A stretch of 24,000 nt of DNA from an uncultured archaeon (GTDB lineage Archaea > Asgardarchaeota > Heimdallarchaeia > Heimdallarchaeales > Kariarchaeaceae). The notes beneath the pieces are model-generated. The model ran no database searches. It saw nothing but the letters and a program-made list of their open reading frames with translations, and had not been told where the DNA came from. The position numbers were made by a program, and so were the translations under genes. The stretch covers positions 1-24,000 of the forward strand of contig CAZRLL010000002.1 in the NCBI GenBank assembly GCA_964600735.1, in the 5' to 3' direction. Positions 1,478 to 21,416 of this stretch are shown piece after piece; within the stretch, counting starts at the first letter, position 1, and each line of letters starts with the position of its first letter.

Positions 1478-1882
1478 TTAACTGGCTAATATCCCTTTCA
1501 AGGGTTCTGCAAAATCACGTATAGTGTTTAGAGTGATTCCTACAGAATGGAGTTCTTTAGAAGCACCAATAAGTATATGTTCACCTGCAGTAACCAATAT
1601 TGTAAAACCAATTTCACCTCTAATTAACATTGCTTGTAGTTGACCATGATTCATCCTAGAGGTTACCATCGTTCCAGTAGACATCACTGCGGCGGATATT
1701 GCAGATAATAAATCTGGATCAGCACCTGCTTGTACAAAAAATGCGAGCGTTATACCCTCCCGAGTGATGATTCCTAACGCTTCTAATTCACATTGTTTTG
1801 AGATAGATGTAAGGAGTTTTACCAATTCTTGTTTTTGTTTTGCATTAATCTCTGTGGACATCCGATATCTATTTCTTTTCAT
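1478..1882 (-). CDS. Roadblock/LC7 (MglB-like) domain protein
   Basis: The core QELVKLLTSISKQCELEALGIITREGITLAFFVQAGADPDLLSAISAAVMSTGTMVTSRMNHGQLQAMLIRGEIGFTILVTAGEHILIGASKE matches the Robl/LC7 alpha-beta-alpha pattern (gv.ga.lv..dGl.la..., then i......l......g..L.v.a). The start is uncertain: TTG 1924, ATG 1882 or ATG 1861. The N-terminus is a short basic extension. Confidence 0.65.
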   Translation of the reverse strand: MKRNRYRMSTEINAKQKQELVKLLTSISKQCELEALGIITREGITLAFFVQAGADPDLLSAISAAVMSTGTMVTSRMNHGQLQAMLIRGEIGFTILVTAGEHILIGASKELHSVGITLNTIRDFAEPLKGILAS

Positions 1883-2051
1883 ACTAGGTTTAGTATTTTT
1901 TCTTGAACCATATTGAGGATTCAATTAAAAATTGTTTAATTAAGGTGATTTTTGCATGATATCAATAAACGTTATTTCTTGAAATCCCATCTAAATCTGA
2001 GATGACATGTCATGTATCCAAAAGACAATAAATATTTATAAGAAAAAATAG

Positions 2052-5692: not shown

Positions 5693-7186
5693 ATGTCTCT
5701 GGAAATAACTCCTCTTAGATTAATTATGTTTACATCAGAAACTTGTGTATACTGTCCACCAATTGAAACAATAGTGAGAGAAGTTGTTGGATCTGGTATG
5801 CAGGATCTGGTTCATGTATCAACAATTGATATTGACGATGATCATGAAGCTAGTTCTCGATATCAAATTCAATCTCTTCCAACCTTAGTCATAAATGATG
5901 AAATTGTCTTGCAGGGTGGAATGGATGATGATTCAGTTAGAGATCTATTGTGGTCAACATTATTAAATCAAGCGATAACTTCAGAACAGGCAATTACGTT
6001 GACGAAAAATTCTTTACTTGCACTTACTATGAACGCAATGGATTCTCTCAATGGTTCAAAAGTATTAAGACCATCGGTAGGAGACTATACTCATATCGGT
6101 GTATTTCAGCAATATCTTTTGAGTCTTTATAGCTTAGATCCATTAATTCCACATTTGTTGTACAAAGCAGGCTATCAATTGGGAATGTTTGGGATGATGC
6201 ATCATGTGTTGACATTACTCAATCCTAAACTTGGCAGAACCCCTAAAAGAGATCTAAGATTCAAACACTTAGCCTATGCTTTAACTCTCTATTTTTCGGA
6301 TAGGGAGATTCTTCCAACATTACTTGCAGAATCTGCGAACGTTGTTAAAATTACAGACACCCAGATAGATCTCCGAGTAAATGACATGGCTTCAGCGTCT
6401 ATTAGGATCGATGTAGGTGAACCCATGTGTGGATTTTTTGCTGGACAACTTGCTGGAGTTACTGCTGCGGTTATGGGGATGTCTGGAACTGCTGCTAGTT
6501 GTGAAGAATTAATTTGTATGGCTAATGGTGGTGAATATTGTCTATTCCAAATATCTATTGCTGGGGAAGAATTAGCAGAAAAACCACTTCCTCCACTTGA
6601 AAATAAGGAGGAACGTGCAGGAAGGAGGCAAAACTTCTATGAAGTCATTCATGAAATGACAAATATTATTCAAGATAGTAATTTGATGATTAAAACTCAA
6701 CGAGTTAAAGTTAGAGACTTCATTCACATATCTGTTTTACAACCAATAATAATATCAATTAAATTCCTAGATAGATTTTCAGGGACAATTTTGTATAATG
6801 GAGGAAAAGAATTGGGAGTATTTGGACCGGGGAAACAGTTACTAATTCGATTGGTTCAAGAGGAAGGAATACAAGTTCCCGTGCCTCTAGAAAAAGCTGT
6901 AAATCTATTATTGGCATATTTAAGACACCCGACAACCATGCTTGGGAGAGAACATGGTCTAGTTAGGCTGAATCACGAAGACGATGACAGTTATACCTTA
7001 GAAATTGATGATAGTGTAAGTATCGCCGGAATGCAGACAGCAGAACTTAATAAAACATTTTGTGATTTTCAAGCTGGATTTATTGCTGGTAGATTATATA
7101 TTCTTGTTGGAAAGGATCCAATAGTGAAAGAAATAGAGTGCCAAGGAACTGGACATCAAACTTGCAAATATCGAATTACGGTTTAA
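5693..7186 (+). CDS. Fusion protein: N-terminal thioredoxin/glutaredoxin-like domain (CVYC) followed by two V4R (4-vinyl-reductase / Bet3-like) domains
   Basis: The Trx-fold signature is RLIMFTSETCVYCPP...SLPTLVIND (CxxC at 5744-5755). There are two copies of the V4R C-terminal signature: CGFFAGQLAGV...CEELICMANGGEYCLFQISI and CDFQAGFIAGRL...IECQGTGHQTCKYRITV. Confidence 0.7.
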   Translation: MSLEITPLRLIMFTSETCVYCPPIETIVREVVGSGMQDLVHVSTIDIDDDHEASSRYQIQSLPTLVINDEIVLQGGMDDDSVRDLLWSTLLNQAITSEQAITLTKNSLLALTMNAMDSLNGSKVLRPSVGDYTHIGVFQQYLLSLYSLDPLIPHLLYKAGYQLGMFGMMHHVLTLLNPKLGRTPKRDLRFKHLAYALTLYFSDREILPTLLAESANVVKITDTQIDLRVNDMASASIRIDVGEPMCGFFAGQLAGVTAAVMGMSGTAASCEELICMANGGEYCLFQISIAGEELAEKPLPPLENKEERAGRRQNFYEVIHEMTNIIQDSNLMIKTQRVKVRDFIHISVLQPIIISIKFLDRFSGTILYNGGKELGVFGPGKQLLIRLVQEEGIQVPVPLEKAVNLLLAYLRHPTTMLGREHGLVRLNHEDDDSYTLEIDDSVSIAGMQTAELNKTFCDFQAGFIAGRLYILVGKDPIVKEIECQGTGHQTCKYRITV

Positions 7187-7401: not shown

Positions 7402-7770
7402 ATGGCCCGCCGTCGTAAAAGATCATTCGATAGTTTGGATGATCTGCTACCTAATGAATTAATTGAATCAACAAGTGGCTCGACTGTGGTAGAACTTAAA
7501 GCAATTGTGAATCAACTTGAAAAACAAATGCAAGATATGATTGATAAATATGAGAAGCAAATTGAACAACTATCTGAAAGATTAGAATCAATCGAAAGTG
7601 ATTTTGGTCAAGTTGTTGAGACACTAAAATCACCTGATGCTTCTTCAGGGGGTCAATCTATTCCTTCTAGTCCGGTTAGTAGTTCAATGCCGCCACCAGC
7701 AGCAGCCACTACACCACCATCAACCACTCCCCCACCATCAGGGGGACCCAAACCTCCATCTTTAGGTTAA
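7402..7770 (+). CDS. Hypothetical coiled-coil protein with a Pro/Ser/Thr-rich low-complexity tail
   Basis: 122 aa. It has a basic N-terminus (MARRRKR), a heptad-like stretch (LKAIVNQLEKQMQDMIDKYEKQIEQLSERLESIESDF), then SSMPPPAAATTPPSTTPPPSGGPKPPSLG. That tail is encoded by a locally GC-rich patch (~7688-7760). I saw no SD, and coding status rests on ORF length only. Confidence 0.4.
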   Translation: MARRRKRSFDSLDDLLPNELIESTSGSTVVELKAIVNQLEKQMQDMIDKYEKQIEQLSERLESIESDFGQVVETLKSPDASSGGQSIPSSPVSSSMPPPAAATTPPSTTPPPSGGPKPPSLG

Positions 7771-8573: not shown

Positions 8574-9242
8574 TTATTTGTCACTACTGCCTAATTCTTC
8601 CTTCAAAGATTTTAATTCATCTTCAAGATCATTTGTTGACTCTTTTTTCTCATTTTCACCTGAAGTAGATGGAGTCGTAAGCATGCCGGCTTCGGGCAAG
8701 TCACCATGAGATTCGGATTGCATTTCCAATTCAAGAGCAGCTAGCTGATCATCGATTGAATCAGCAAATTCACCATCCAGATCCATTTCAAGACTTGAAA
8801 CATCTGATAACGATTCAGTCATCATAGAAATCCTGTCCCGTTGATCATCCATCTCAACTATGGTCCTTTCAACGTCTAATGGAGATATTTGTTCTAATGT
8901 ATCTTCAACAACTTGACTACCTACTTTCAAAGCAGTTACTGTTTCTGCTGTTGATTTTGCAGTTGAGATTGTATCAATTTGAGTTGATAAATTTAAACTC
9001 ATATTTTGACTTTGATTGTATTTTTGCATATACAAGCTGCTTCGCGTTAGAGCTTGTCTGGCACCAACCTTGTTCCCAGATTGAACCATAGATTTGGCAA
9101 CTTGCTTTTGTTCTTCGGATTTTCTAAGAAGATTCCGCCCTTCTACTTCCAAAGAGTTAAGTTGTTTTTTTAACTTCTGGAGCGCTTCAGCCTCCTTATT
9201 ATCACTCTTACCCTTACCAAATAACCATGATTTGATACCCAA
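8574..9242 (-). CDS. ESCRT-III subunit, Snf7 family, Vps20/32/60 (CHMP4/6)-like
   Basis: It has an N-terminal membrane-insertion-like motif (GIKSWLFGKGK) and a basic helical hairpin (LQKLKKQLNSLEVEGRNLLRKSEEQKQVAKSMVQSGNKVGARQALTRSSLYMQKYNQ). The C-terminal half is acidic and ends in a MIM-like helix (DLEDELKSLKEEL). The start is a TTG, with GGAGG (9251-9255) 8 nt upstream and no alternative start that keeps the conserved N-terminus. Confidence 0.85.
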   Translation of the reverse strand: MGIKSWLFGKGKSDNKEAEALQKLKKQLNSLEVEGRNLLRKSEEQKQVAKSMVQSGNKVGARQALTRSSLYMQKYNQSQNMSLNLSTQIDTISTAKSTAETVTALKVGSQVVEDTLEQISPLDVERTIVEMDDQRDRISMMTESLSDVSSLEMDLDGEFADSIDDQLAALELEMQSESHGDLPEAGMLTTPSTSGENEKKESTNDLEDELKSLKEELGSSDK

Positions 9243-9245
9243 TTT

Positions 9246-9857
9246 TTATTCCTCCTTTTTCCTTAAAGATTCTATTTCTTTCTCTAATTCTGATGTTTTC
9301 GTTGTAGGCATTGGTAATCCAACAGAAGCAGTTATTCCAACTTCTGCACCATATTCCTGGAGTAGATTGTCAATTTCCCCCTCATCGGTATCAGATTCAA
9401 ATAGTTGATCCATGCTGTCTTCCATAATTTCTGATGTGTCTTCAATGCCTTCAAGAGCTTGATTCATGTCGCCAACCAAATTATCAATCTCAGGTAGGTT
9501 TAAAGCGTTGTTTGCATCAATCAATGATTTTGAAACACCTCTCATTTCCTTTGCGATATCTTGGACAGCATCGGCTCGCTCTAACTTGAAAATAAGTCCA
9601 TCAATCTTGCTAATGAGAGATTGATATCCTCTCCCCCATTTTCTTGAACGCACGGTATCTTGTGCATACATACGTGCAGCCTGCATATCTCCTTTTTGAA
9701 TTGCTGCTCGAATTTTTCGTTCAGTTTTCTTTTCTTGATTTTCAAGCTTACGCTGAGATTTTGTCAATCTTCGATTGACAAGTTTCAAATTTAAAGTGTT
9801 GTCACGACTGGATCTTGTACTTTTACCTCCAACAAGCCATCCTAGTATATCTCTCAA
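9246..9857 (-). CDS. ESCRT-III subunit, Snf7 family, Vps2/24/46 (CHMP1/2/3)-like
   Basis: The N-terminus is RDILGWLVGGK. The core KLVNRRLTKSQRKLENQEKKTERKIRAAIQKGDMQAARMYAQDTVRSRKW matches the Vps2/CHMP2 pattern (Rel.r....le.qekk....IKka.kkG....Aki.A.d.vr.r). The C-terminus is acidic and ends in an amphipathic MIM-like helix (SELEKEIESLRKKEE). The start is a TTG, the first start-type codon after an in-frame TAA at 9885-9887. Confidence 0.85.
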   Translation of the reverse strand: MRDILGWLVGGKSTRSSRDNTLNLKLVNRRLTKSQRKLENQEKKTERKIRAAIQKGDMQAARMYAQDTVRSRKWGRGYQSLISKIDGLIFKLERADAVQDIAKEMRGVSKSLIDANNALNLPEIDNLVGDMNQALEGIEDTSEIMEDSMDQLFESDTDEGEIDNLLQEYGAEVGITASVGLPMPTTKTSELEKEIESLRKKEE

Positions 9858-10140
9858 TTTTAATTCACTCGTATTATATTGTGCTTACATTAATTATTAA
9901 TTTTCCCTTTAATAAAAACTTCCTATTGGAATGTCATAATGATCGCGCGAATTTGGCTCGAAAATACTTTAATTCATATCATACAATTATAAATATTGTA
10001 CTTGATTGATTTGTGTCCATTGTAATAATTGCTGTAACTAATATTGGGAATTTTCCATCCAGTCATTATTATCAGACAAAGGTATTTATCAAATGAAAAA
10101 TATTTTTTATTTTGTAGCAGTAACCAGAGTGGGTGATTTA
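9858..10140. promoter_or_regulatory. Divergent promoter region between the ESCRT-III operon (-) and the Vps4-Vps25 operon (+)
   Basis: This is a 283-bp AT-rich spacer between divergently oriented genes. It has a TATA-like ATTTATCA at 10084-10091 and an SD-like GGTGAT at 10132-10137. An isolated perfect GC palindrome, TCGCGCGA, sits at 9943-9950. The exact elements are unverified. Confidence 0.3.
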
Positions 10141-11289
10141 ATGAGTCAAAATTTATATGCAAGAGCCAGAGTACTTGCTGAGCAAGCAGTCGAAGCTGAT
10201 AATGCACAGAAATATGGGGATGCACTTAACATGTATCTCCAAGCTGCAGAAATCTTGCTCGAGATGACCAAATTCACATCGAATTCCAGACTCGTTGACA
10301 CCTATGAAAGCAGGGCGAAAGAATATATTGCTCGTGCCAAGGTCCTTAAGCCATTGAGTCTGCAGAAAAAAAGTATAAAATCAGATAGATCAAGTGATTC
10401 ATCAGATGATTCTGAACTTGACAGTTCATTGGAGGATGCAATTGTTTCAGAGATACCTGATGTTACATTAGATGACGTGGCAGGACTTACCGATGCTAAA
10501 ACCGCTTTGCGAGAAGCGATTGTTTTACCATTACTTCGACCTGATTTATTTACAGGATCGAGACAGCCTTGGAGAGGTATATTATTGCATGGACCCCCCG
10601 GTTGTGGAAAAACTATGATTGCTAAAGCTACTGCTGGTGATGTTGAGGCAACATTTTTCAATATTTCTGCAGCTACTTTGGTAAGTAAATGGCTGGGAGA
10701 GAGTGAGAAGTTAGTAAAAAGGTTATATGAAATTGCAAAAGATAAGCAACCCTCAATAATTTTTATTGACGAAGTCGATTCCCTGACCCAAACGAGGGGA
10801 GAGGGAGAAAATGATGCGATGAGGAGAGTTAAGACTCAATTATTAACAAGCATGGAAGGATTGTCATCAAAAAAAGGAGATCGAGTAGTCACAATCGGAG
10901 CAACAAATATTCCATGGGAAATTGATTCTGCTTTTAGGCGAAGATTCCAGAGAAGAATATACGTTTCATTACCCGATATAGAGGCAAGGGAAGTGATCTT
11001 CAAAATTAATTCCAAAGGGATTGAACTTAACCCTGACATCGATTTCAATGAACTTGCGAAAATGACAGAGGAATATTCTGGATCGGATATTGCAAATATT
11101 TGCCGTGAAGCAATAATGAAACCGATACGCGATTTAGATACTAGTGATTTAATTTTGGATTTGGAAACAAAAGCAAGACCTGTTGTCCACAGTGACTATA
11201 TTAGTGCACTTGAAAATGTTCGCAAGTCGGTATCTGCCTCAGAATTGGCAAAATTTGATGAATGGGACAATGAATTTGGAGCAGGCTAG
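10141..11289 (+). CDS. vps4: Vps4-type AAA+ ATPase (MIT domain plus a single AAA cassette)
   Basis: The N-terminal MIT-like three-helix region is ARVLAEQAVEADNAQKYGDALNMYLQAAEILLEM...YESRAKEYIARAKVL, followed by a Ser/Asp-rich linker. Walker A is GPPGCGKT (10591-10614) and Walker B is IIFIDEVD. The second region of homology is ATNIPWEIDSAFRRRFQRRIYVSLPD, and the Vps4-type C-terminal helix is ELAKFDEWDNEFG. The ATG at 10141 is preferred over 10093 because of the adjacent SD-like motif. The extra 16 aa from 10093 are hydrophobic and not MIT-like. Confidence 0.93.
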   Translation: MSQNLYARARVLAEQAVEADNAQKYGDALNMYLQAAEILLEMTKFTSNSRLVDTYESRAKEYIARAKVLKPLSLQKKSIKSDRSSDSSDDSELDSSLEDAIVSEIPDVTLDDVAGLTDAKTALREAIVLPLLRPDLFTGSRQPWRGILLHGPPGCGKTMIAKATAGDVEATFFNISAATLVSKWLGESEKLVKRLYEIAKDKQPSIIFIDEVDSLTQTRGEGENDAMRRVKTQLLTSMEGLSSKKGDRVVTIGATNIPWEIDSAFRRRFQRRIYVSLPDIEAREVIFKINSKGIELNPDIDFNELAKMTEEYSGSDIANICREAIMKPIRDLDTSDLILDLETKARPVVHSDYISALENVRKSVSASELAKFDEWDNEFGAG

Positions 11290-11293
11290 TTTA

Positions 11294-12016
11294 ATGTCAG
11301 TAAAAGAGCGTCCTGATAAGAAAAAAGAAAAAGAAAAAGTAGATAATTATAGTGCAAAAAATGAGGATAAATCGATAGAAGACTGGTTGGATAACGTTTC
11401 GCTTGATCCTCCCGAACAAACTCCTAAAACGAGCTCTGAAGACCCCCATATCGCACAATCAAAAGAAGAAATTCAGATAGTGTCCCAGGATAAGCACCAT
11501 GAATTCATTGTTTCATTACCATCTTGGATTTCTAAACCCTGGATGTATGTTCAACCAACCCATCAAAATCAGTTGGAATCGTGGTTGGATTCGTGGAAAA
11601 AAGTAATTGTAGATTATTCGCGTATTTTAACTTTACATGTCATTAACATATCGGAGTTGATCAACCAACACCCGTTTAATAATCACGAACTCAATAAAAG
11701 ATTAACAGGAGATATTATTAATAATATCTTTGAACATATGATACAAGATGGGTTAGCGAAATGGCTTGACGAGAATCATATTTTAGTACGAATATATTAT
11801 AAAACTAATGAACAGTGGAGTTCAATTATTATGGAATATTTGATAAATACCGGACTAGCAGCTGAAGTCTTAACACTTTATGAGGTGGAAAAATTAGAAC
11901 AAGAATGGAGTTCAATTCCTCGTAATGAATTGGTGGAAATATTTGACATTCTAGTAACCAAAAAAAGAGCAGGATGGGTGGGAGATACCAAAGACACACT
12001 AACGTTTCATTTATGA
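11294..12016 (+). CDS. ESCRT-II subunit, Vps25-like (tandem winged-helix) with an ~85-aa charged N-terminal extension
   Basis: FIVSLPSWISKPWMYVQPTHQNQLESWLDSWKKVIVDY aligns with the Vps25 hallmark F.WP....FPPFFTLQPN..TR..QL..W..LIL.Y. It is followed by ...ELINQHPFNNHELNKRL... and ...EQWSSIIMEYLINTGLAAEVLTLYEV..., as in Vps25 WH1/WH2. The ATG lies 4 nt after the Vps4 stop. The ORF-track start at 11183 overlaps Vps4 and is rejected. Confidence 0.8.
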   Translation: MSVKERPDKKKEKEKVDNYSAKNEDKSIEDWLDNVSLDPPEQTPKTSSEDPHIAQSKEEIQIVSQDKHHEFIVSLPSWISKPWMYVQPTHQNQLESWLDSWKKVIVDYSRILTLHVINISELINQHPFNNHELNKRLTGDIINNIFEHMIQDGLAKWLDENHILVRIYYKTNEQWSSIIMEYLINTGLAAEVLTLYEVEKLEQEWSSIPRNELVEIFDILVTKKRAGWVGDTKDTLTFHL

Positions 12017-12100: not shown

Positions 12101-12826
12101 TCATTGTTGTCCAAGACTCGGGAACCAGTATTTTATTCCCTCATGGTATGATTCGTCCTTTAAGGTTATTCCCTCTTTAATTAATTCTTCAATTACTCTT
12201 GTCACCCTTTCAGGAGGCCAACCAGTATACATAATAAGTGATTCTTTTGTTAGGAATCCGTGTCGAGCTGCCAAATCGAATACATTTTGTTGGTCTTTAG
12301 ATAATTCGATTGCAATAAATTCAACAATCAAGACACCAGATGGTAATTTTCTCAAAGGTTGGATTAATTTTGAATCAACTAGAGAGTTTAATGACCGTAT
12401 TGCATCCTTGGGTGGTACCAATTTTCCAGGGCGAGATTTATTAATTTTTATAACTAATTCAGCAACAGATATTAAACCCCCTGTATCTTGCACAAATGAT
12501 TTTCCTAATTCAAGTATTTCATTTGCGAGTTGATCAAAATAACCCTTACCTCTGATTCGATCCATAACTGATGGACTCTCTTTCCAATCATAAATTCCAA
12601 CTTCTTCCGGTAATCCCAATTCTTCACGAATAACCGCGATTTTTTCGTAATAATCCTTATTATTTCGAATTTCTTTTCCATGTTTCTTTTCGAATTTCTT
12701 TAACTGTTCTTTAAGAGTTTCAACATTTTCGATAAGATTATCCAACTCAAGTAGCATCATTTCTGCTTCTTTGCGCTGATATGCGCTTTTGGATTTGATC
12801 TTCCTCTCGATATCTCTTAATCCCAT
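12101..12826 (-). CDS. ESCRT-II subunit, Vps22/Vps36-like (EAP30 domain)
   Basis: An N-terminal helical/coiled-coil segment is followed by an EAP30-like tandem winged helix: DTGGLISVAELVIKINKSRPGKLVPPKDAIRSLNSLV...LPSGVLIVEF...LTKESLIMYTGWPPERVTRVIEELIKEGITLKDES..GIKYWFPSL. Compare the Vps22/36 pattern GGmi.l.d.y...R...vSp.Dl..A...l...sG..v.q...ws..ra...L...G..w.D....yw.p. The start ATG overlaps the Vps28-like stop (TAATG). Confidence 0.8.
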   Translation of the reverse strand: MGLRDIERKIKSKSAYQRKEAEMMLLELDNLIENVETLKEQLKKFEKKHGKEIRNNKDYYEKIAVIREELGLPEEVGIYDWKESPSVMDRIRGKGYFDQLANEILELGKSFVQDTGGLISVAELVIKINKSRPGKLVPPKDAIRSLNSLVDSKLIQPLRKLPSGVLIVEFIAIELSKDQQNVFDLAARHGFLTKESLIMYTGWPPERVTRVIEELIKEGITLKDESYHEGIKYWFPSLGQQ

Positions 12827-13437
12827 TACAATTCCTTCAAATGTCTGCGAAATTCGTTTAACCAGCGTACTGCGTCAAATTCTAACTTCTCACACTGCTC
12901 ATCGGATAGAACCATTGTGGGTTTCTCATCTAGTAGTGTCTTTCGCCAACCGTTTAATTCAATGATGGACCAATGATCTTCACCTAATTTTGGAAAATTT
13001 ATCAAAATATTGTACATGTCATCTAATAAAGGTACGAGATATTCCACTTTAGCTACCGTTCTTAATTTTAATAAATCAATCAACTCAATTGCATTTGCTA
13101 CATAATCAGCAGATTTTACAGGTAATTCCTTTAGTTCTTTATACTCTAGTGATATTGCATCAGAGTCTAATCCTTCAACAAGATCCAATCTTCTCATTCC
13201 TTCAGGGAACTTGTTGGTCAAATCTTCACGTTCAATAAAATCTGTCAGATTGAAACCTTGTCTTTCCAATTGTAATCTGGCTTTGAAAACATCAGAAATG
13301 CATGACTTCAATTGTCTTCGATAAAGCGTCTCTTCAACCAATCCCTTATCAAAATATTTTGATAATTGGTCCATTGTAGCAATGGCAGCATATAGGTCTG
13401 CTTCAACTTGTAATGGGTCTTTTTGTCTTCTCTGCAT
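12826..13437 (-). CDS. ESCRT-I subunit, Vps28-like
   Basis: The N-terminal core LYAAIATMDQLSKYFDKGLVEETLYRRQLKSCISDVFKARLQL matches LYsii.t.e.LEkay.kd.i...eY...c.kLl.Q.k. The C-terminal four-helix-bundle region EYLVPLLDDMYNILINFPKLGEDHW..LNGWRKTLLDEKPTMVLSDEQCEKLEFDAVRWLNEFRRHL matches the Vps28 CTD pattern (..W...L..m.a.deL.e.q.rql.fDle.aY..F...L). Confidence 0.8.
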   Translation of the reverse strand: MQRRQKDPLQVEADLYAAIATMDQLSKYFDKGLVEETLYRRQLKSCISDVFKARLQLERQGFNLTDFIEREDLTNKFPEGMRRLDLVEGLDSDAISLEYKELKELPVKSADYVANAIELIDLLKLRTVAKVEYLVPLLDDMYNILINFPKLGEDHWSIIELNGWRKTLLDEKPTMVLSDEQCEKLEFDAVRWLNEFRRHLKEL

Positions 13438-14107
13438 AATTAGGTCCCTCTATTTGTAATAATTCTCGGGTCGCAATGTATAGCTCACGGATGTATTTTC
13501 GATATAATCTAAAGAAATCAACTTGGTCAATATCCGCTTCCTCAAACTTAATGGTTATTAATTCCAGCAGATCATTAATGGCAAGTACCTGGCATTCTGC
13601 ATCCATTTGTCTCGATATTTTAAATGACCCACCAACTGCGACATCAACTCCTGCCTTTTGGAGTTGATCAGTTTTTATTTCAGCTATTTTTCGGTTATAT
13701 TCAGCTATTTGTTTCTGAAGAGAAACGATTTCCTGTTCCAGCTTGCCCTCGAGCATCGAAATATCTTTTACACCACGTGTTATGGATGTTCTAGAACGAA
13801 TGAATAACCGACGAGTTGTAGATATCACATCTTTTAATCGATATGTAGGTTCCCACTCGTCCAATAATTGCAGGGCTAGTGTCTTATTTGAATTAATATT
13901 AGGATGACGAATTTCTGTTAATACGTTGACATCAGGCCTGATTACTGGATAAAATTCCGGTAAAGTAATTCGAATTCTGATGTCGTCACCTGATGCCGTT
14001 CTTCCAACCTTTCCGACGAAGGCATTTCCATGTGCTTGAAAGGTTGGTTCATTTCGAAAAATCCAATCAAGCTCTTGAGCAATAATTTTTCCTGTGTCAA
14101 TATCCAT
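13403..14107 (-). CDS. ESCRT-I subunit, Vps23/Tsg101-like: UEV (catalytically dead E2 fold), coiled coil and steadiness-box-like C-terminus
   Basis: The E2/UBC-fold core is IRITLPEFYPVIRPDVNVLTEIRHPNINSNKTLALQLLDEWEPTYRLKDVI. It keeps the HPN motif (13904-13906), but the catalytic Cys position is Ala (GCC, 13874-13876). A coiled coil follows (LEGKLEQEIVSLQKQIAEYNRKIAEIKTDQLQK), then a C-terminal helical hairpin (INDLLELITIKFEEADIDQVDFFRLYRKYIRELYIATREL). The ATG at 14107 has AGGTGG (14120-14125) 12 nt upstream. The ORF track extends to a TTG at 14185. Confidence 0.7.
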   Translation of the reverse strand: MDIDTGKIIAQELDWIFRNEPTFQAHGNAFVGKVGRTASGDDIRIRITLPEFYPVIRPDVNVLTEIRHPNINSNKTLALQLLDEWEPTYRLKDVISTTRRLFIRSRTSITRGVKDISMLEGKLEQEIVSLQKQIAEYNRKIAEIKTDQLQKAGVDVAVGGSFKISRQMDAECQVLAINDLLELITIKFEEADIDQVDFFRLYRKYIRELYIATRELLQIEGPNYAEKTKRPITS

Positions 14108-14334
14108 TTTGCTTACTGACCACCTACTCTCATGTATTTCCCAATGTAAATAATTACGATTGTACAAGATAATAAGGTTAAGCAATTTGATAGTTACTTT
14201 TGTTAGAATTATTTATTATTTTGCTCAAGAATTTTCGATCCACTCTTTATGACAGTCAGATATGATATGATCTTTTTATAATATTTTGAAAATATTACTC
14301 CTAAAACTAATTTTGTATTAAATCAATTAACCCA

Positions 14335-16305
14335 TCATTCGTCAATTATAGGTAGAAAACGAACCTCTGGAAAAGACCAAAACACATTTCCATCCGTTAC
14401 CTGACGAAGAGTATCAGCTAATTTGGAACTATTTTTGACTGGAATGATTGCTTTAATATTACATTCGTCCTCTGTACTTACCTCTTCAATAGATGCTCTA
14501 TATTTCTGTAATTCATGTAAGGTGTTACCTAAGTAGGTATCTCCCACATTAATATCAATTGTATAATATGGTTCATGTTGTGTACTTTTCGTAAAAACCA
14601 ATGCTTCTCGGATCAAAGTTGATGCAGTGATCATTCCACTCTCATAACTGGGAGAAGACTTAGTAATAAGATAGGATTCAACTATTAACGTAAAATTTTT
14701 AATCCTGCCGCCCGAAATAGGGGATATCCTCATGGTCTGCTTGAATACATCAATAAAACCTTCTAATACTTCTTTTTCTATATCACAATGAAGAACAAGT
14801 TGATTCGAATGATTATCTTTGAAAAAAATATTCCTTTCATCAACTTGGGTAAATTTTGACGACCTCCCTGCGTGAATCGAAATTTTAGGATTTTTAGAAA
14901 ATACGAACATGGATTCCATCAAGGGCATCTCAAATTGTAAAATAATTGGATCAGAAACTTCAATTTCAAAATCCATATTTTTCAATTCAGATGCTAGAAC
15001 ATCTAATTGTAACGTGCCTACTCCGAGGAGAAGTAATTCGCCAGTATCTTGATTTGATTCAAATTCTAAACCGGGTGTTGCCTGAACTAATACTTCAATC
15101 ACCTCTTGTAATCGGCTAATGTCATTAATTTTAAGTGGTTCAATACTAATTGCAACAACTGGATCCTGAACATAGGAAATATTTTTTAAAAAAAAGTTCT
15201 TCTCTTTCGGAGGAACAAGTAAATCACCAGGCATTATGGGTTTATTAACAATTAGTCCCCCAATTTGACCAGCTGTTAACAGAGGCACATCTTTACTAGA
15301 TCTACCATGTAACTCGATAATTCGCATAATGCGTAAATTTTCACTATTAAGGGAAGATTGAAGTTTCTGACCTCGTTTCAATGTTCCCGATGCCACTCGT
15401 ACAATGGATGCCCATTGTTTGCCATGATCCAGCCTTACAAACCGTCCAACTATTGTGATCGGAACACCTAATTTACTACATGAATGCAATTCTGCTAGTA
15501 AACCATCTGGAATTTTATTTAATAGCATGTTTGGAAATTTATATTTTTGACCCTCAATTGGGGAAGGAAGATTTTCAACGATACATCGGGTTAAAGTGGC
15601 AGCGAGATTTGTATTATCAGGAAACTTGTTAATTGTATCATTTTGGTAGATTTCAACAACATCACTTAATTTTCCATTCTCCTTCACAAAAAAATTATCC
15701 ATCGCCCAACCATCAGTTGCAGAGCCAATAATAACAGATCCTACTGAAAATTTCGGTAAAAATTGTTTTTCAAAACCGTAATGCTCACAAATTGTGTGAA
15801 TCTCGCTAATTATTCGTTCTAATCGTTGTTGAATTGTTATTATTGGTAACTCTAACTCGTTAATTAAACGATCTACTTTGTTTATGAATAAAACAAGTTT
15901 AAGTTTCTCTCTGATTGCTTGACGTAGTACTGTCCTTGTCTGAGCCATTATACCCTCAACCGCGTCAACAAGAATTAATCCTCCATCAACAAGTCTTAGA
16001 GATTCTGCTACTTTCCCTGAAAAATCAACATGACCTGGAGTATCAATTAAATTGATATGATAGTTTTTATTATTATATTCTAATTGAAAAGTTGCTAGAG
16101 TTGTTTCAATGGTAATACCTCTGCGCTGCTCTTCTGGTAAAAAATCCAAGGCTCGTAATGTACCTGCTAAATGTGAGGGTATCATTCCTCCAGAAGCTAT
16201 TAGATGATCAGAAAGAGTTGTTTTTCCATGATCCACATGAGAAATAATTGATAAATTTCTGATGAGTTGAACGTTATTATTATCAATTGGTTTTTTGTTT
16301 TTCAT
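14335..16305 (-). CDS. Elongation factor 2 (EF-2/EF-G family) paralogue, short and lacking the diphthamide-acceptor His motif
   Basis: The GTPase motifs are G1 SHVDHGKTT, G2 RGITI, G3 DTPGHVDF and G4 NKVDR. Overall collinearity is with aEF-2, including the domain V-like C-terminus (HEPYYTIDINVGDTYLGNTLHELQKYRASIEEV...IKAIIPVKNSSKLADTLRQVTDGNVFWSFPEVRFLPI). It is only 656 aa. Where EF-2 has H-x-D-x-x-H-R-G, this protein has ITKSSPSYESGM (14632-14667). Confidence 0.85.
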   Translation of the reverse strand: MKNKKPIDNNNVQLIRNLSIISHVDHGKTTLSDHLIASGGMIPSHLAGTLRALDFLPEEQRRGITIETTLATFQLEYNNKNYHINLIDTPGHVDFSGKVAESLRLVDGGLILVDAVEGIMAQTRTVLRQAIREKLKLVLFINKVDRLINELELPIITIQQRLERIISEIHTICEHYGFEKQFLPKFSVGSVIIGSATDGWAMDNFFVKENGKLSDVVEIYQNDTINKFPDNTNLAATLTRCIVENLPSPIEGQKYKFPNMLLNKIPDGLLAELHSCSKLGVPITIVGRFVRLDHGKQWASIVRVASGTLKRGQKLQSSLNSENLRIMRIIELHGRSSKDVPLLTAGQIGGLIVNKPIMPGDLLVPPKEKNFFLKNISYVQDPVVAISIEPLKINDISRLQEVIEVLVQATPGLEFESNQDTGELLLLGVGTLQLDVLASELKNMDFEIEVSDPIILQFEMPLMESMFVFSKNPKISIHAGRSSKFTQVDERNIFFKDNHSNQLVLHCDIEKEVLEGFIDVFKQTMRISPISGGRIKNFTLIVESYLITKSSPSYESGMITASTLIREALVFTKSTQHEPYYTIDINVGDTYLGNTLHELQKYRASIEEVSTEDECNIKAIIPVKNSSKLADTLRQVTDGNVFWSFPEVRFLPIIDE

Positions 16306-19289: not shown

Positions 19290-21416
19290 ATGAAAAAAGA
19301 GTCACAGTATTATATTATTGCATTAGTTGTATTATTCTTGTTGAATCCTACTACAATTCAGATGGGAGCTAAAACGGATGCAAACCATGATCAGTCATTA
19401 TCTCCTGAAAGTTATAATCCCAAATTTGATCTGTTCAACATAAGAGATCAAATGACACTCACACCAATCTTTACTCCCGATAATGCCTTATCTTCGCATA
19501 TTGGATGGATTAACCAAGCAAATTCAACAATTGACATCCAGAATCAATATATCAAATTTTTTGATTCTTATGATGATTGGGAAACAAATCCCACTCCATT
19601 TGTAGCAGCTTTATTAAATGCAAAATTACGAGGAGTGAGTATCCGGGTACAATTAAGAGATAATGAAAGTAATGAGATCGAACCTTTTCTTTTGAATAAG
19701 GGAATTTCTGTAAAGTACATGGGGTCTTTAATTAGCAATACAGATGATGACGACTGGTTATCGAATACTCATAATAAGTTAATGATTATAGATGAAAGTG
19801 TAATACTTATATCATCAATTAATTTTGGAAGTGGATTTATAAACAGTAGAGAAGCAGGTATTGTTGTTCAAAACGCTCAAGCTGCAAATTACTTCACTTC
19901 AATTTTTGAAAATGACTGGGTGGATGGAGAAGTTCCTGTTTTTCGATTAACTGATCCTGGAATTATATCAGAGAAAATTGTTACAAACAGTGTGGATTAT
20001 CCCAGTCATACCAATATTCCTAAGACAAATTTTACTGGAATATACAACATTACTCTTTTTACTAACCCGGACAATGCTGATGGGGTGATTTTTAATTTCT
20101 TGAAAGCAGCAAAAAAATCGATTTATGTTTCAATGTATACAATTTCTAGACCCGATTTCAATAACACACTAATTAATCTCAAAAAAGCCAATCCCTCGAT
20201 TGATATACAAGTATTAATTTCCAGTCGACGAGTTGGTAAATATGAAAATATTGATACATGGTCTGCAGTTAAATCATTAGTAGACAATCTAATTCCGGTA
20301 TATAATGCATCTGTGGATACTTTTATTGATCAAGCTGGGTTTTACCATAATAAATATTGGATAATTGATGGTGAACATACCTTCGTTTATAGTGGTAATT
20401 GGAGTCCCAGAAGTGTAACACCTGTGGAAACACAATATTCTTCCGATGAGGGAAATAGAGATATGGGAATAGTAATCCATGATGCCACTGATATTGCTGA
20501 TTTTTACAAGAATGTATGGGATCAAGATGTTTTAGTTGCAGATAAGTGGGAACTCCCAATTGGGATTAAGCAGACTAGTTTTCAAACTGCTGATGTTGTT
20601 TATGGTTCAATCACTCTTTCGGCAAATATTAACGGTTTAAATAATCCAACTGTTTCATATCGTTGGGGGAATGGGGATTATCATCAGGTGAGTTTAACCA
20701 ATAACACATTTTCTGAAGAATTTGATACAACAACATTCGAAAATGGAATTACAACATTTGAGGTCAGAGCAGAAGAAGTAACTCAAGTTTTTACCGATAA
20801 AGTGATTATTAATGTGGTCAACTTGGTCGAGAATGATAACTGGAGATTTTTAATAACTGAATTGTTACCAAATCCTGAGGGTACAGACTCCGTTGCCGAA
20901 TTTATTGAATTAACGAATAGCTTTCCATTTGATTTATTGATTGAAGACTGGCAGATTGGTGATGATAGTGATTTGTTCTCTTTTAAGGGGGGAACGAAAA
21001 TAAAATCATATTCTTCGATAATATTGGCAAAGGATAAATCAGGATTTGAAAGCACATTTAGTATAACTGCGGATTATGAATTTAGATTTACTCTGAAAAA
21101 TACCGATGGAGACTATGTACGATTGCTGGACAATCATGAAGAATACATGGATGTCGTTGCCTATGGATTGGATGCACCTGATGGCTCTGAAAAATTATCA
21201 ATTCCAGATTCAGGAGAATCAATCTTGAGAATAAACTTACATATAGACACTGATGAAGCAGCAGATTTTACATTTGGTGAACCAGATCCCAAGGGAGAAG
21301 TTCCACAGATTTCTATGGGGATTTTAGAAACAGACGAGACAGCTGCACCTATTATAACTCCATGGATATTTCTAATAATCTCGATGCTCCCAATTTATTT
21401 GAAGAAACAAAAGTAA
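19290..21416 (+). CDS. Secreted/membrane-anchored phospholipase D-superfamily enzyme (two HKD motifs) fused to a lamin-tail domain (LTD)
   Basis: The N-terminal signal/anchor is MKKESQYYIIALVVLFLLNPTT. HKD motif 1 is HNKLMIIDESVILISSINFG (from 19770) and HKD motif 2 is HNKYWIIDGEHTFVYSGNWS (from 20346). The LTD signature is ITELLPNPEGTDSVAEFIELTNSFPFDLLIEDWQIGDD. The C-terminal hydrophobic segment with a basic tail is PIITPWIFLIISMLPIYLKKQK. Confidence 0.8.
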   Translation: MKKESQYYIIALVVLFLLNPTTIQMGAKTDANHDQSLSPESYNPKFDLFNIRDQMTLTPIFTPDNALSSHIGWINQANSTIDIQNQYIKFFDSYDDWETNPTPFVAALLNAKLRGVSIRVQLRDNESNEIEPFLLNKGISVKYMGSLISNTDDDDWLSNTHNKLMIIDESVILISSINFGSGFINSREAGIVVQNAQAANYFTSIFENDWVDGEVPVFRLTDPGIISEKIVTNSVDYPSHTNIPKTNFTGIYNITLFTNPDNADGVIFNFLKAAKKSIYVSMYTISRPDFNNTLINLKKANPSIDIQVLISSRRVGKYENIDTWSAVKSLVDNLIPVYNASVDTFIDQAGFYHNKYWIIDGEHTFVYSGNWSPRSVTPVETQYSSDEGNRDMGIVIHDATDIADFYKNVWDQDVLVADKWELPIGIKQTSFQTADVVYGSITLSANINGLNNPTVSYRWGNGDYHQVSLTNNTFSEEFDTTTFENGITTFEVRAEEVTQVFTDKVIINVVNLVENDNWRFLITELLPNPEGTDSVAEFIELTNSFPFDLLIEDWQIGDDSDLFSFKGGTKIKSYSSIILAKDKSGFESTFSITADYEFRFTLKNTDGDYVRLLDNHEEYMDVVAYGLDAPDGSEKLSIPDSGESILRINLHIDTDEAADFTFGEPDPKGEVPQISMGILETDETAAPIITPWIFLIISMLPIYLKKQK

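Follow-up and report, generated by a model that had tools for sequence, protein, structure and literature searches.

A probable Vps23/Tsg101 orthologue with a cysteine-less E2-like domain in the ESCRT gene cluster of a Kariarchaeaceae archaeon

[quoted passage not shown] Here we describe a 234-amino-acid (aa) protein of this kind, referred to as window Vps23, and the genes around it. It is encoded in a 24,000-nucleotide (nt) stretch of DNA, hereafter the window, from an uncultured archaeon of the Kariarchaeaceae (Asgardarchaeota; Heimdallarchaeia), positions 1 to 24,000 of contig CAZRLL010000002.1 in assembly GCA_964600735.1. The closest described systems are those of other Asgard archaea. Two clusters, asCOG005829 and asCOG007313, make up the UEV-Vps23 family, which is present in Kariarchaeia, where ubiquitin genes are not clustered with UEV-Vps23 (bioRxiv 10.1101/2023.07.25.550441; the Lu et al. 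2023 preprint is listed as Cell Rep, doi 10.1016/j.celrep.2024.113781, in the references of PMC10936438). The UEV domains of Heimdall and Odin archaea recognise the hydrophobic patch of ubiquitin, and the complex of Odin Vps23 with Vps28 has a 2:1 stoichiometry (Hatano et al. 2022, PMC9192718). Surface plasmon resonance on several Asgard lineages recorded both UEV-ubiquitin and Vps23-Vps28 binding, a Helarchaeia UEV binds a RING E3, and a PxxP motif between stalk and steadiness box has been linked to autoinhibition (Lu et al., bioRxiv 10.1101/2023.07.25.550441). The vps22, vps23 and vps28 genes are described as co-directed (PMC10936438).

Published work thus already covers this family in its architecture, gene neighbourhood and biochemistry, this lineage included. 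Before eukaryotes arose, Asgard ESCRT-I linked ubiquitin signalling with membrane remodelling, which gives such genes weight in models of eukaryogenesis. The argument is not new, and Heimdall, Odin, Loki and Hel proteins have served to test it biochemically. The locus studied here is one more compact and complete example from the Kariarchaeaceae, with separate, apparently coupled vps23 and vps28 genes and an unusually E2-like UEV domain. Its practical value lies in annotation, as several orthologues are mislabelled 'ubiquitin-conjugating enzyme E2' in public records.

We interpret the gene as the Vps23/Tsg101 orthologue of a Heimdall-group (Kariarchaeaceae) ESCRT-I, a member of the UEV-Vps23 family, with a probability of about 0.85. 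The fold of the N-terminal domain, its loss of the catalytic Cys, a Vps23/Tsg101-like C-terminal hairpin, a conserved operon and a conserved gene overlap carry this interpretation. Window Vps23 belongs to the published Asgard family: it shares the three-part build of a Cys-less E2 domain with a coiled-coil stalk and a steadiness box, its gene lies with vps28 and vps22 in an ESCRT cluster of a Heimdall-group lineage, and ubiquitin genes are not clustered with it.

A search of 5.8 billion proteins returned 19 relatives at E <1e-47, all 216-252 aa long and all with the Pfam domain UQ_con. Those with a named source come from genome bins of Candidatus Kariarchaeaceae or Heimdallarchaeota. The full open reading frame of vps23 spans 13403 to 14185 on the minus strand. 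Its start is taken to be ATG 14107, the equivalent Met being the first residue in each of the 19 orthologues. The public gene call on the ENA contig yields the identical 234-aa product, and protein P0001 (NCBI/ENA) is 100% identical to it. A longer product beginning at the TTG at 14185 was rejected, since the orthologue N-termini and the public gene call favour ATG 14107.

The N-terminal domain of window Vps23 matched UQ_con at E 8.7e-10 (38.8 bits against a cut-off of 27 bits; profile positions 47-110 of 140), a score that excludes a chance match. Its best PDB sequence matches were Ubc13 and UbcH5. HMMER paired HPNINSNKTLALQLL of window Vps23 with HPNV(N/D)KLG(S/R)ICLDIL of Ubc13 structures, and by this pairing Ala78 falls in the catalytic-Cys column. 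The register was unchanged when the family profile was aligned to Ubc13 with hhalign (E 3.6e-11, probability 97%); the Ubc13 query agrees with the Ubc13 segments in the HMMER alignments. Among the orthologues the catalytic column reads AADADDADNDDDEADSAAD, i.e. A, D, N, E or S and Cys in 0 of 19, and the HPN motif is invariant in all of them. The single Cys of window Vps23 is residue 172, in the C-terminal hairpin and outside the UBC domain. A preliminary description, made from the sequence of the window, had proposed a catalytically dead E2 with Ala in place of the active-site Cys at 13876-13874. Both points stood: Ala78 occupies this position and no orthologue carries a conserved active-site Cys. 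The HPN motif it reported is also present, at residues 68-70 (13906-13898), but the position given for it, 13904-13906, is the His codon only.

Structure prediction likewise upheld the UBC-like fold proposed for residues ~1-120. The full-length AlphaFold 2 (AF2) model, built from a 19-sequence alignment, had a mean predicted local distance difference test score (pLDDT) of 77. Its N-terminal domain is made up of a helix (residues 5-19) and four strands, together with the HPN loop and two further helices (80-85 and 91-104); this is a truncated UBC core, missing the last two helices that a complete E2 has. Foldseek matched the domain to many E2 structures in the PDB, UbcH5 and Ubc13 among them, with probability 1.0 and a root-mean-square deviation (rmsd) of ~3 Å over ~108 columns.

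Several database names would make the protein an active E2 ubiquitin-conjugating enzyme. P0003, P0004 and P0017 are among the orthologues publicly named 'ubiquitin-conjugating enzyme E2' or 'ubiquitin-protein ligase', P0012 being the only one named 'E2 variant'. The UQ_con score, the invariant HPN and the closest PDB sequences, which are active E2s, agree with these names. However, the catalytic column holds Ala in window Vps23, whose UBC domain has no Cys at all, and Cys in none of the orthologues, and two C-terminal E2 helices are absent. The sequence refutes an active enzyme, and we give this explanation virtually no credence. The label 'ubiquitin-conjugating enzyme E2' is wrong because the orthologue domain has no catalytic Cys.

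The C-terminal half of window Vps23 was described beforehand as a heptad-repeat region followed by a steadiness-box-like helical hairpin, and both elements were recovered. In the stalk, positions 120+7n are E, I, I, I and Q, placing Ile at 127, 134 and 141, and a second heptad position, 123+7n, holds L123, L130, Y137 and I144, giving the 3-4 hydrophobic spacing. I127, I134 and I141 are nearly invariant among the orthologues and Q131 is invariant. AF2 modelled residues 119-151 as one uninterrupted helix. A Pfam DCD match to residues 130-187 (E 5e-4, 20.5 bits, cut-off 27) was set aside as coiled-coil noise.

The hairpin consists in the AF2 model of helices 166-187 and 195-220, and reached a pLDDT of 91-97 when residues 118-234 were modelled alone. 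Foldseek compared the C-terminal model with 350,542 PDB chains, and its top matches were the steadiness boxes of Vps23 and Tsg101. At rank 1 stood 2p22_A, the yeast Vps23 chain of the ESCRT-I core, followed by yeast Vps23 2f66_A at rank 2 and, at rank 3, the Vps23-C:Vps28-N subcomplex 2f6m_C (rmsd 0.9 Å, 60 columns, target TM-score 0.92). Human Tsg101 headpiece chains (6vme) took ranks 5 and 8, and yeast Vps23 2caz rank 6. Across these top Vps23/Tsg101 matches the rmsd was 0.9-1.1 Å and the target TM-score 0.87-0.92.

The gene neighbourhood points the same way. As first described, vps23 lies directly upstream of a Vps28-like gene and overlaps it, here by 35 nt. The Vps28 product matched PF03997 with 49 bits (E 8.4e-13), almost end to end, over positions 2-187 of the 188 in the profile. 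The start of the EAP30 gene (PF04157, E 1.1e-22) shares one base with the vps28 stop. The plus-strand genes for Vps4 and a Vps25-like protein (PF05871, E 3.2e-22) converge on the minus-strand vps23-vps28-vps22 genes, and two Snf7-family genes (PF03357, E 3.9e-24 and 1.1e-15) complete the cluster. NCBIfam held no family for the Vps23, Vps28, Vps22 or Vps25 products.

The order vps23-vps28-vps22 recurs in three orthologous loci (L001, L002 and L003), whose Vps23 proteins are 53-58% identical to window Vps23 and whose outer flanking genes differ. In these loci vps23 and vps28 overlap by 41-44 nt. All four loci carry a Shine-Dalgarno-like element inside the 3' end of vps23, a few bases before the vps28 ATG (GAGGG in the window; AGGTGA or AGGAG in L001-L003). 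The overlap and this internal site, found together in four loci, suggest that the two proteins, subunits of one complex, are translated in a coupled way. The sites where the vps23 tail meets the vps28 start are 13403-13450 in the window, 10674-10714 in L001, 8578-8621 in L002 and 10668-10708 in L003. Here the Vps23 tail EK(T)K(R)PIT(S/N) and the Vps28 N-terminus RRxKDPLQVEA are read from the same bases in different frames, and both are conserved. As the tail is dual-coded with the Vps28 N-terminus, conservation alone does not tell which frame is under selection.

A number of results weigh against a Vps23/Tsg101 orthologue. For the UEV domain, Tsg101 UEV was absent from the top 50 Foldseek matches, and the AF2 model, although the two C-terminal E2 helices are missing from it as in Tsg101-type UEVs, shows neither their extra N-terminal helix nor an obviously extended beta-hairpin tongue. 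The Pfam UEV profile (PF05743) gave no match to window Vps23 up to E 10. In sequence comparisons Ubc13 and other active E2s are far nearer to the domain than Tsg101 UEV is. For the C-terminal half, the Foldseek E-values of the hairpin were only 0.1-1, and helical hairpins are widespread folds. Pfam Vps23_core (PF09454) did not match window Vps23 up to E 10; the hhalign comparison of the C-terminal profile with the human TSG101 C-terminus was weak (E 0.018, probability 2.6%); and a search of PDB sequences with the profile of this half returned coiled-coil noise only, with no Vps23 or Tsg101. Window Vps23 also differs from the proteins of Lu et al. in having no PxxP between stalk and steadiness box, its only prolines after residue 110 being P222 and P231. 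Finally, a ubiquitin gene is absent from the window and from the flanks of the three orthologous loci.

At the level of the family, PF05743 matched five of the 19 orthologues below threshold (best E 7.5e-4), and hhalign aligned the family profile to Tsg101 UEV at E 0.015, against 3.6e-11 for Ubc13. The Tsg101 UEV query was verified against 1KPP. In this alignment the catalytic column fell on Tsg101 Tyr110, the residue that stands in place of the catalytic Cys in Tsg101. These alignments make the window domain a Cys-less E2, a UEV in the broad sense; they do not demonstrate a UEV of the Tsg101 type. The Tsg101-like UEV of the preliminary description is therefore kept as a Cys-less E2 variant; its Tsg101 type found no counterpart in sequence, PF05743 giving no match.

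For the hairpin, the E-values are those expected of ~60 helical residues, and the ranking of Vps23 and Tsg101 obtained with the predicted model is nevertheless specific. Vps23_core, with a cut-off of 26.8 bits, matched 12 of the 19 orthologues below threshold (12-22.5 bits, best E 1.1e-4). In the eight whose matches were inspected, all lay at residues ~167-223 and covered profile positions 12-64. The hhalign alignment to the TSG101 C-terminus was in the expected register, with ECQVLAINDLL... opposite LYAEENAIEDTI..., and its query was confirmed to be the same sequence as PDB 6VME_B and to agree with 3IV1. BLASTP of window Vps23 against the Tsg101 headpiece found no significant match.

More distant proteins provided a further connection. 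An exhaustive HMMER search of 1.84 billion proteins with a stalk and hairpin profile retrieved only 43 representatives at E <=1e-3, and ten of these were scanned with Pfam. Among the ten, P0036 (28.6 bits) and P0051 (31.8 bits) exceed the Vps23_core cut-off; as both were reached with the stalk and hairpin profile, they form a transitive sequence link between the window family and Vps23_core. P0042, a more distant relative, exceeds the PF05743 cut-off (40.5 bits against 27). One of the ten, P0028 (473 aa), is a UEV-Vps23-Vps28 fusion; a second, P0024 (388 aa), is apparently one too, its Vps28 match being below threshold (19.1 bits against 24.5). This architecture was reported for Heimdallarchaeota AB_125, where Vps28 is fused to Vps23, whereas the window has a separate, overlapping vps28 gene. 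The steadiness-box assignment is thus supported by the modelled fold together with family-level and transitive sequence evidence.

The closeness of the domain to Ubc13 would also suit a cofactor of the Mms2/Uev1 type that pairs with a Ubc13-like E2 for chain building, its link to ESCRT being secondary. Ubc13 is a much nearer match to the domain than Tsg101 is, and Mms2 and Ube2V1 were among the Foldseek matches, at ranks 28 and 42; Mms2 and Uev1 lack the catalytic Cys, as does window Vps23. We consider such a cofactor very unlikely. A stalk and a hairpin of the Vps23 type are fused to the domain, translation appears coupled to that of Vps28 in four loci, there is no E2 gene nearby, and published relatives act as ESCRT-I ubiquitin receptors (PMC9192718).

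The preliminary description had seen no ubiquitin, E1, E2 or E3 gene in the window, and the scans bore this out. Neither tblastn with human ubiquitin and Ubc13 nor Pfam scans of the larger open reading frames turned up a ubiquitin gene or a further UBC-like gene in the window; the vps23 region was the only match to Ubc13. Neither the window nor the called genes of L001-L003 include a ubiquitin, E1, second E2 or RING gene. The locus of P0001 added nothing beyond the window when ubiquitin, E1, E2 and E3 genes were sought.

As an ESCRT-I subunit, window Vps23 would act in several steps. Because its E2-like domain is unable to form a thioester, the domain would serve as a non-covalent ubiquitin receptor. 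The heptad stalk would dimerise the protein, by analogy with Odinarchaeota Vps23, a dimer of which binds one Vps28. The steadiness-box hairpin would pack on the homologous N-terminal hairpin of Vps28 to form ESCRT-I, and the C-terminal domain of Vps28 may in turn recruit the ESCRT-II (Vps22-type and Vps25), ESCRT-III and Vps4 proteins encoded alongside. For window Vps23, we infer ubiquitin binding, dimerisation and Vps28 binding from its relatives and the literature. The beta2-beta3 hairpin loop (G32, G35, R36, G40 and I43) and the vestigial active-site region are invariant among the orthologues, and these residues appear compatible with a conserved ubiquitin surface.

It is also conceivable that the protein is an ESCRT-I scaffold whose UBC-fold domain has a main ligand different from ubiquitin, for example a proline-rich peptide, a further ubiquitin-like protein or an E3. 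Tsg101 UEV binds P(T/S)AP peptides as well, and the conserved protein encoded nearby at 7402-7770 combines a coiled coil with a Pro-rich tail. Ubiquitin genes are unlinked in this lineage, both in our searches and according to Lu et al., and the RING E3 binding of the Helarchaeia UEV is a precedent (bioRxiv 10.1101/2023.07.25.550441). On the other hand, all Asgard UEVs tested bind ubiquitin (PMC9192718; bioRxiv 10.1101/2023.07.25.550441), and the invariant loop and vestigial active-site region fit a conserved ubiquitin surface. We therefore see little chance that a non-ubiquitin ligand is the main partner.

A related speculation, to which we attach a small chance, is that the Vps23 UEV is recruited by a short proline-containing ligand, instead of or besides free ubiquitin signals. 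The UEV domain of this lineage is nearly an E2, with an invariant HPN and nearer to Ubc13 than to Tsg101, and the linker PxxP is absent. Candidate ligands are the protein's own C-terminal tail, EKTKRPIT(S/N), and the 122-aa Pro-rich protein at 7402-7770. If true, such a ligand would be an archaeal counterpart of P(T/S)AP or ESCRT-0 recruitment, and none is described in the Asgard papers cited here.

Compared with eukaryotic Vps23/Tsg101, the Vps23/Tsg101 orthologue of the window has the same domain order, a Vps28 partner gene and a non-Cys residue at the catalytic position. Its hairpin superposes on yeast Vps23 (2f6m_C, 2f66_A) at ~1 Å and matches 6vme. It differs from Tsg101 in that its UEV domain keeps HPN, is E2-like and has no extra N-terminal helix in the model, in the absence of a Pro-rich linker or PTAP, and in length (234 aa against 390 aa). 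Eukaryotic ESCRT-I also differs, as no Vps37 or Mvb12 gene was seen with window Vps23; the part of Vps37 is probably taken by a homodimer, as it is in Odinarchaeota (PMC9192718).

Ubc13/UBE2N and UbcH5/UBE2D are the best sequence and fold matches of residues ~35-105 and have HPN in common with them. Active E2s differ from window Vps23, which has no Cys, can form no thioester and is without the two C-terminal helices, and canonical E2s and Mms2/Uev1 alike differ from it in that it carries an ESCRT-I stalk and headpiece. In CdvA, from the archaeal Cdv cell-division system, the N-terminal domain is a PRC-barrel, unlike the UBC fold. CdvA of S. islandicus (9s9i_A) came at Foldseek rank 34, far weaker than Vps23 and Tsg101; the CdvA helical hairpin has been proposed as a steadiness-box homologue (Lu et al., bioRxiv 10.1101/2023.07.25.550441; PMC10936438). 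The coordinates of vps23, its parts and the ESCRT genes around it are collected in Table 1.

Table 1. Positions in the window of vps23, its parts and the neighbouring ESCRT genes.
Feature	Position	Strand	Evidence
UEV-Vps23 gene, 234 aa, probable Vps23/Tsg101 orthologue of ESCRT-I	13403..14107	minus	Open reading frame, orthologue N-termini, public gene call
UBC-fold (E2 variant) domain, residues 1 to ~110	13778..14107	minus	Pfam, AF2, Foldseek
HPN motif, residues 68-70	13898..13906	minus	Read off sequence
Ala78 at the E2 catalytic-Cys position	13874..13876	minus	Alignments to Ubc13
Heptad-repeat stalk helix, residues 119-151	13655..13753	minus	Heptad pattern, AF2
Steadiness-box-like helical hairpin, residues 166-220	13448..13612	minus	AF2, Foldseek, Pfam in orthologues
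Overlap of vps23 3' end and vps28 start, 35 nt; vps23 tail EKTKRPITS and stop	13403..13437	minus	
Vps28, 203 aa, full length	12826..13437	minus	PF03997
ESCRT-II Vps22/Vps36-family protein (EAP30)	12101..12826	minus	PF04157
ESCRT-II Vps25-like protein, 240-aa gene call	11294..12016	plus	PF05871
Vps4 ATPase (MIT + AAA + Vps4_C)	10093..11289	plus	Pfam
Two ESCRT-III (Snf7-family) genes, 9246-9857 and 8574-9242	8574..9857	minus	PF03357

Directly upstream of vps23, at 14335-16305 on the minus strand, lies a gene for a 656-aa EF-2/EF-G-like GTPase with GTP_EFTU, EFG_III and EFG_C domains. It seems short for an archaeal EF-2 and may be an EF-2 paralogue. In L002, too, a 655-aa gene adjoins that for the RsmB-like methyltransferase.

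The 122-aa protein encoded at 7402-7770 (plus strand) is conserved, belongs to no Pfam family and has an orthologue at 8872-9249 of L001. Its N-terminus is basic (MARRRKRS..LLPNELIE) and a coiled coil lies at ~25-77; the tail, rich in Pro, Ser and Thr, contains PSSP and a conserved terminal GGP(K/R)PPSLG (GGPKPPSLG in the window). In both the window and L001 its gene adjoins that of TFIIE-alpha and lies near the ESCRT genes. The protein might serve as an adaptor for ESCRT or as a ligand of the UEV domain. It was also considered as a free-standing steadiness box, but hhalign to the Vps23 stalk and hairpin profile matched just 17 coiled-coil columns and gave this no support.

Elsewhere in the window, the plus-strand gene at 5693-7186 encodes a 497-aa fusion of a thioredoxin-like domain and two V4R domains, preceded immediately, on the opposite strand, by the ribosomal S27e gene of the public annotation. 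A 708-aa protein encoded at 19290-21416 (plus strand) carries two phospholipase-D-like domains and a Lamin Tail Domain. A Roadblock/LC7-domain protein is encoded at 1478-1924 (minus strand), and L001 and L002 have more Roadblock/LC7 genes. Two tRNA genes lie on the minus strand: tRNA-Val(TAC) at 2051-2126 and a second, at 2643-2732, that ARAGORN missed and Rfam scored at 49.6 bits. The length of the latter, 90 nt, points either to an intron or to a long variable arm.

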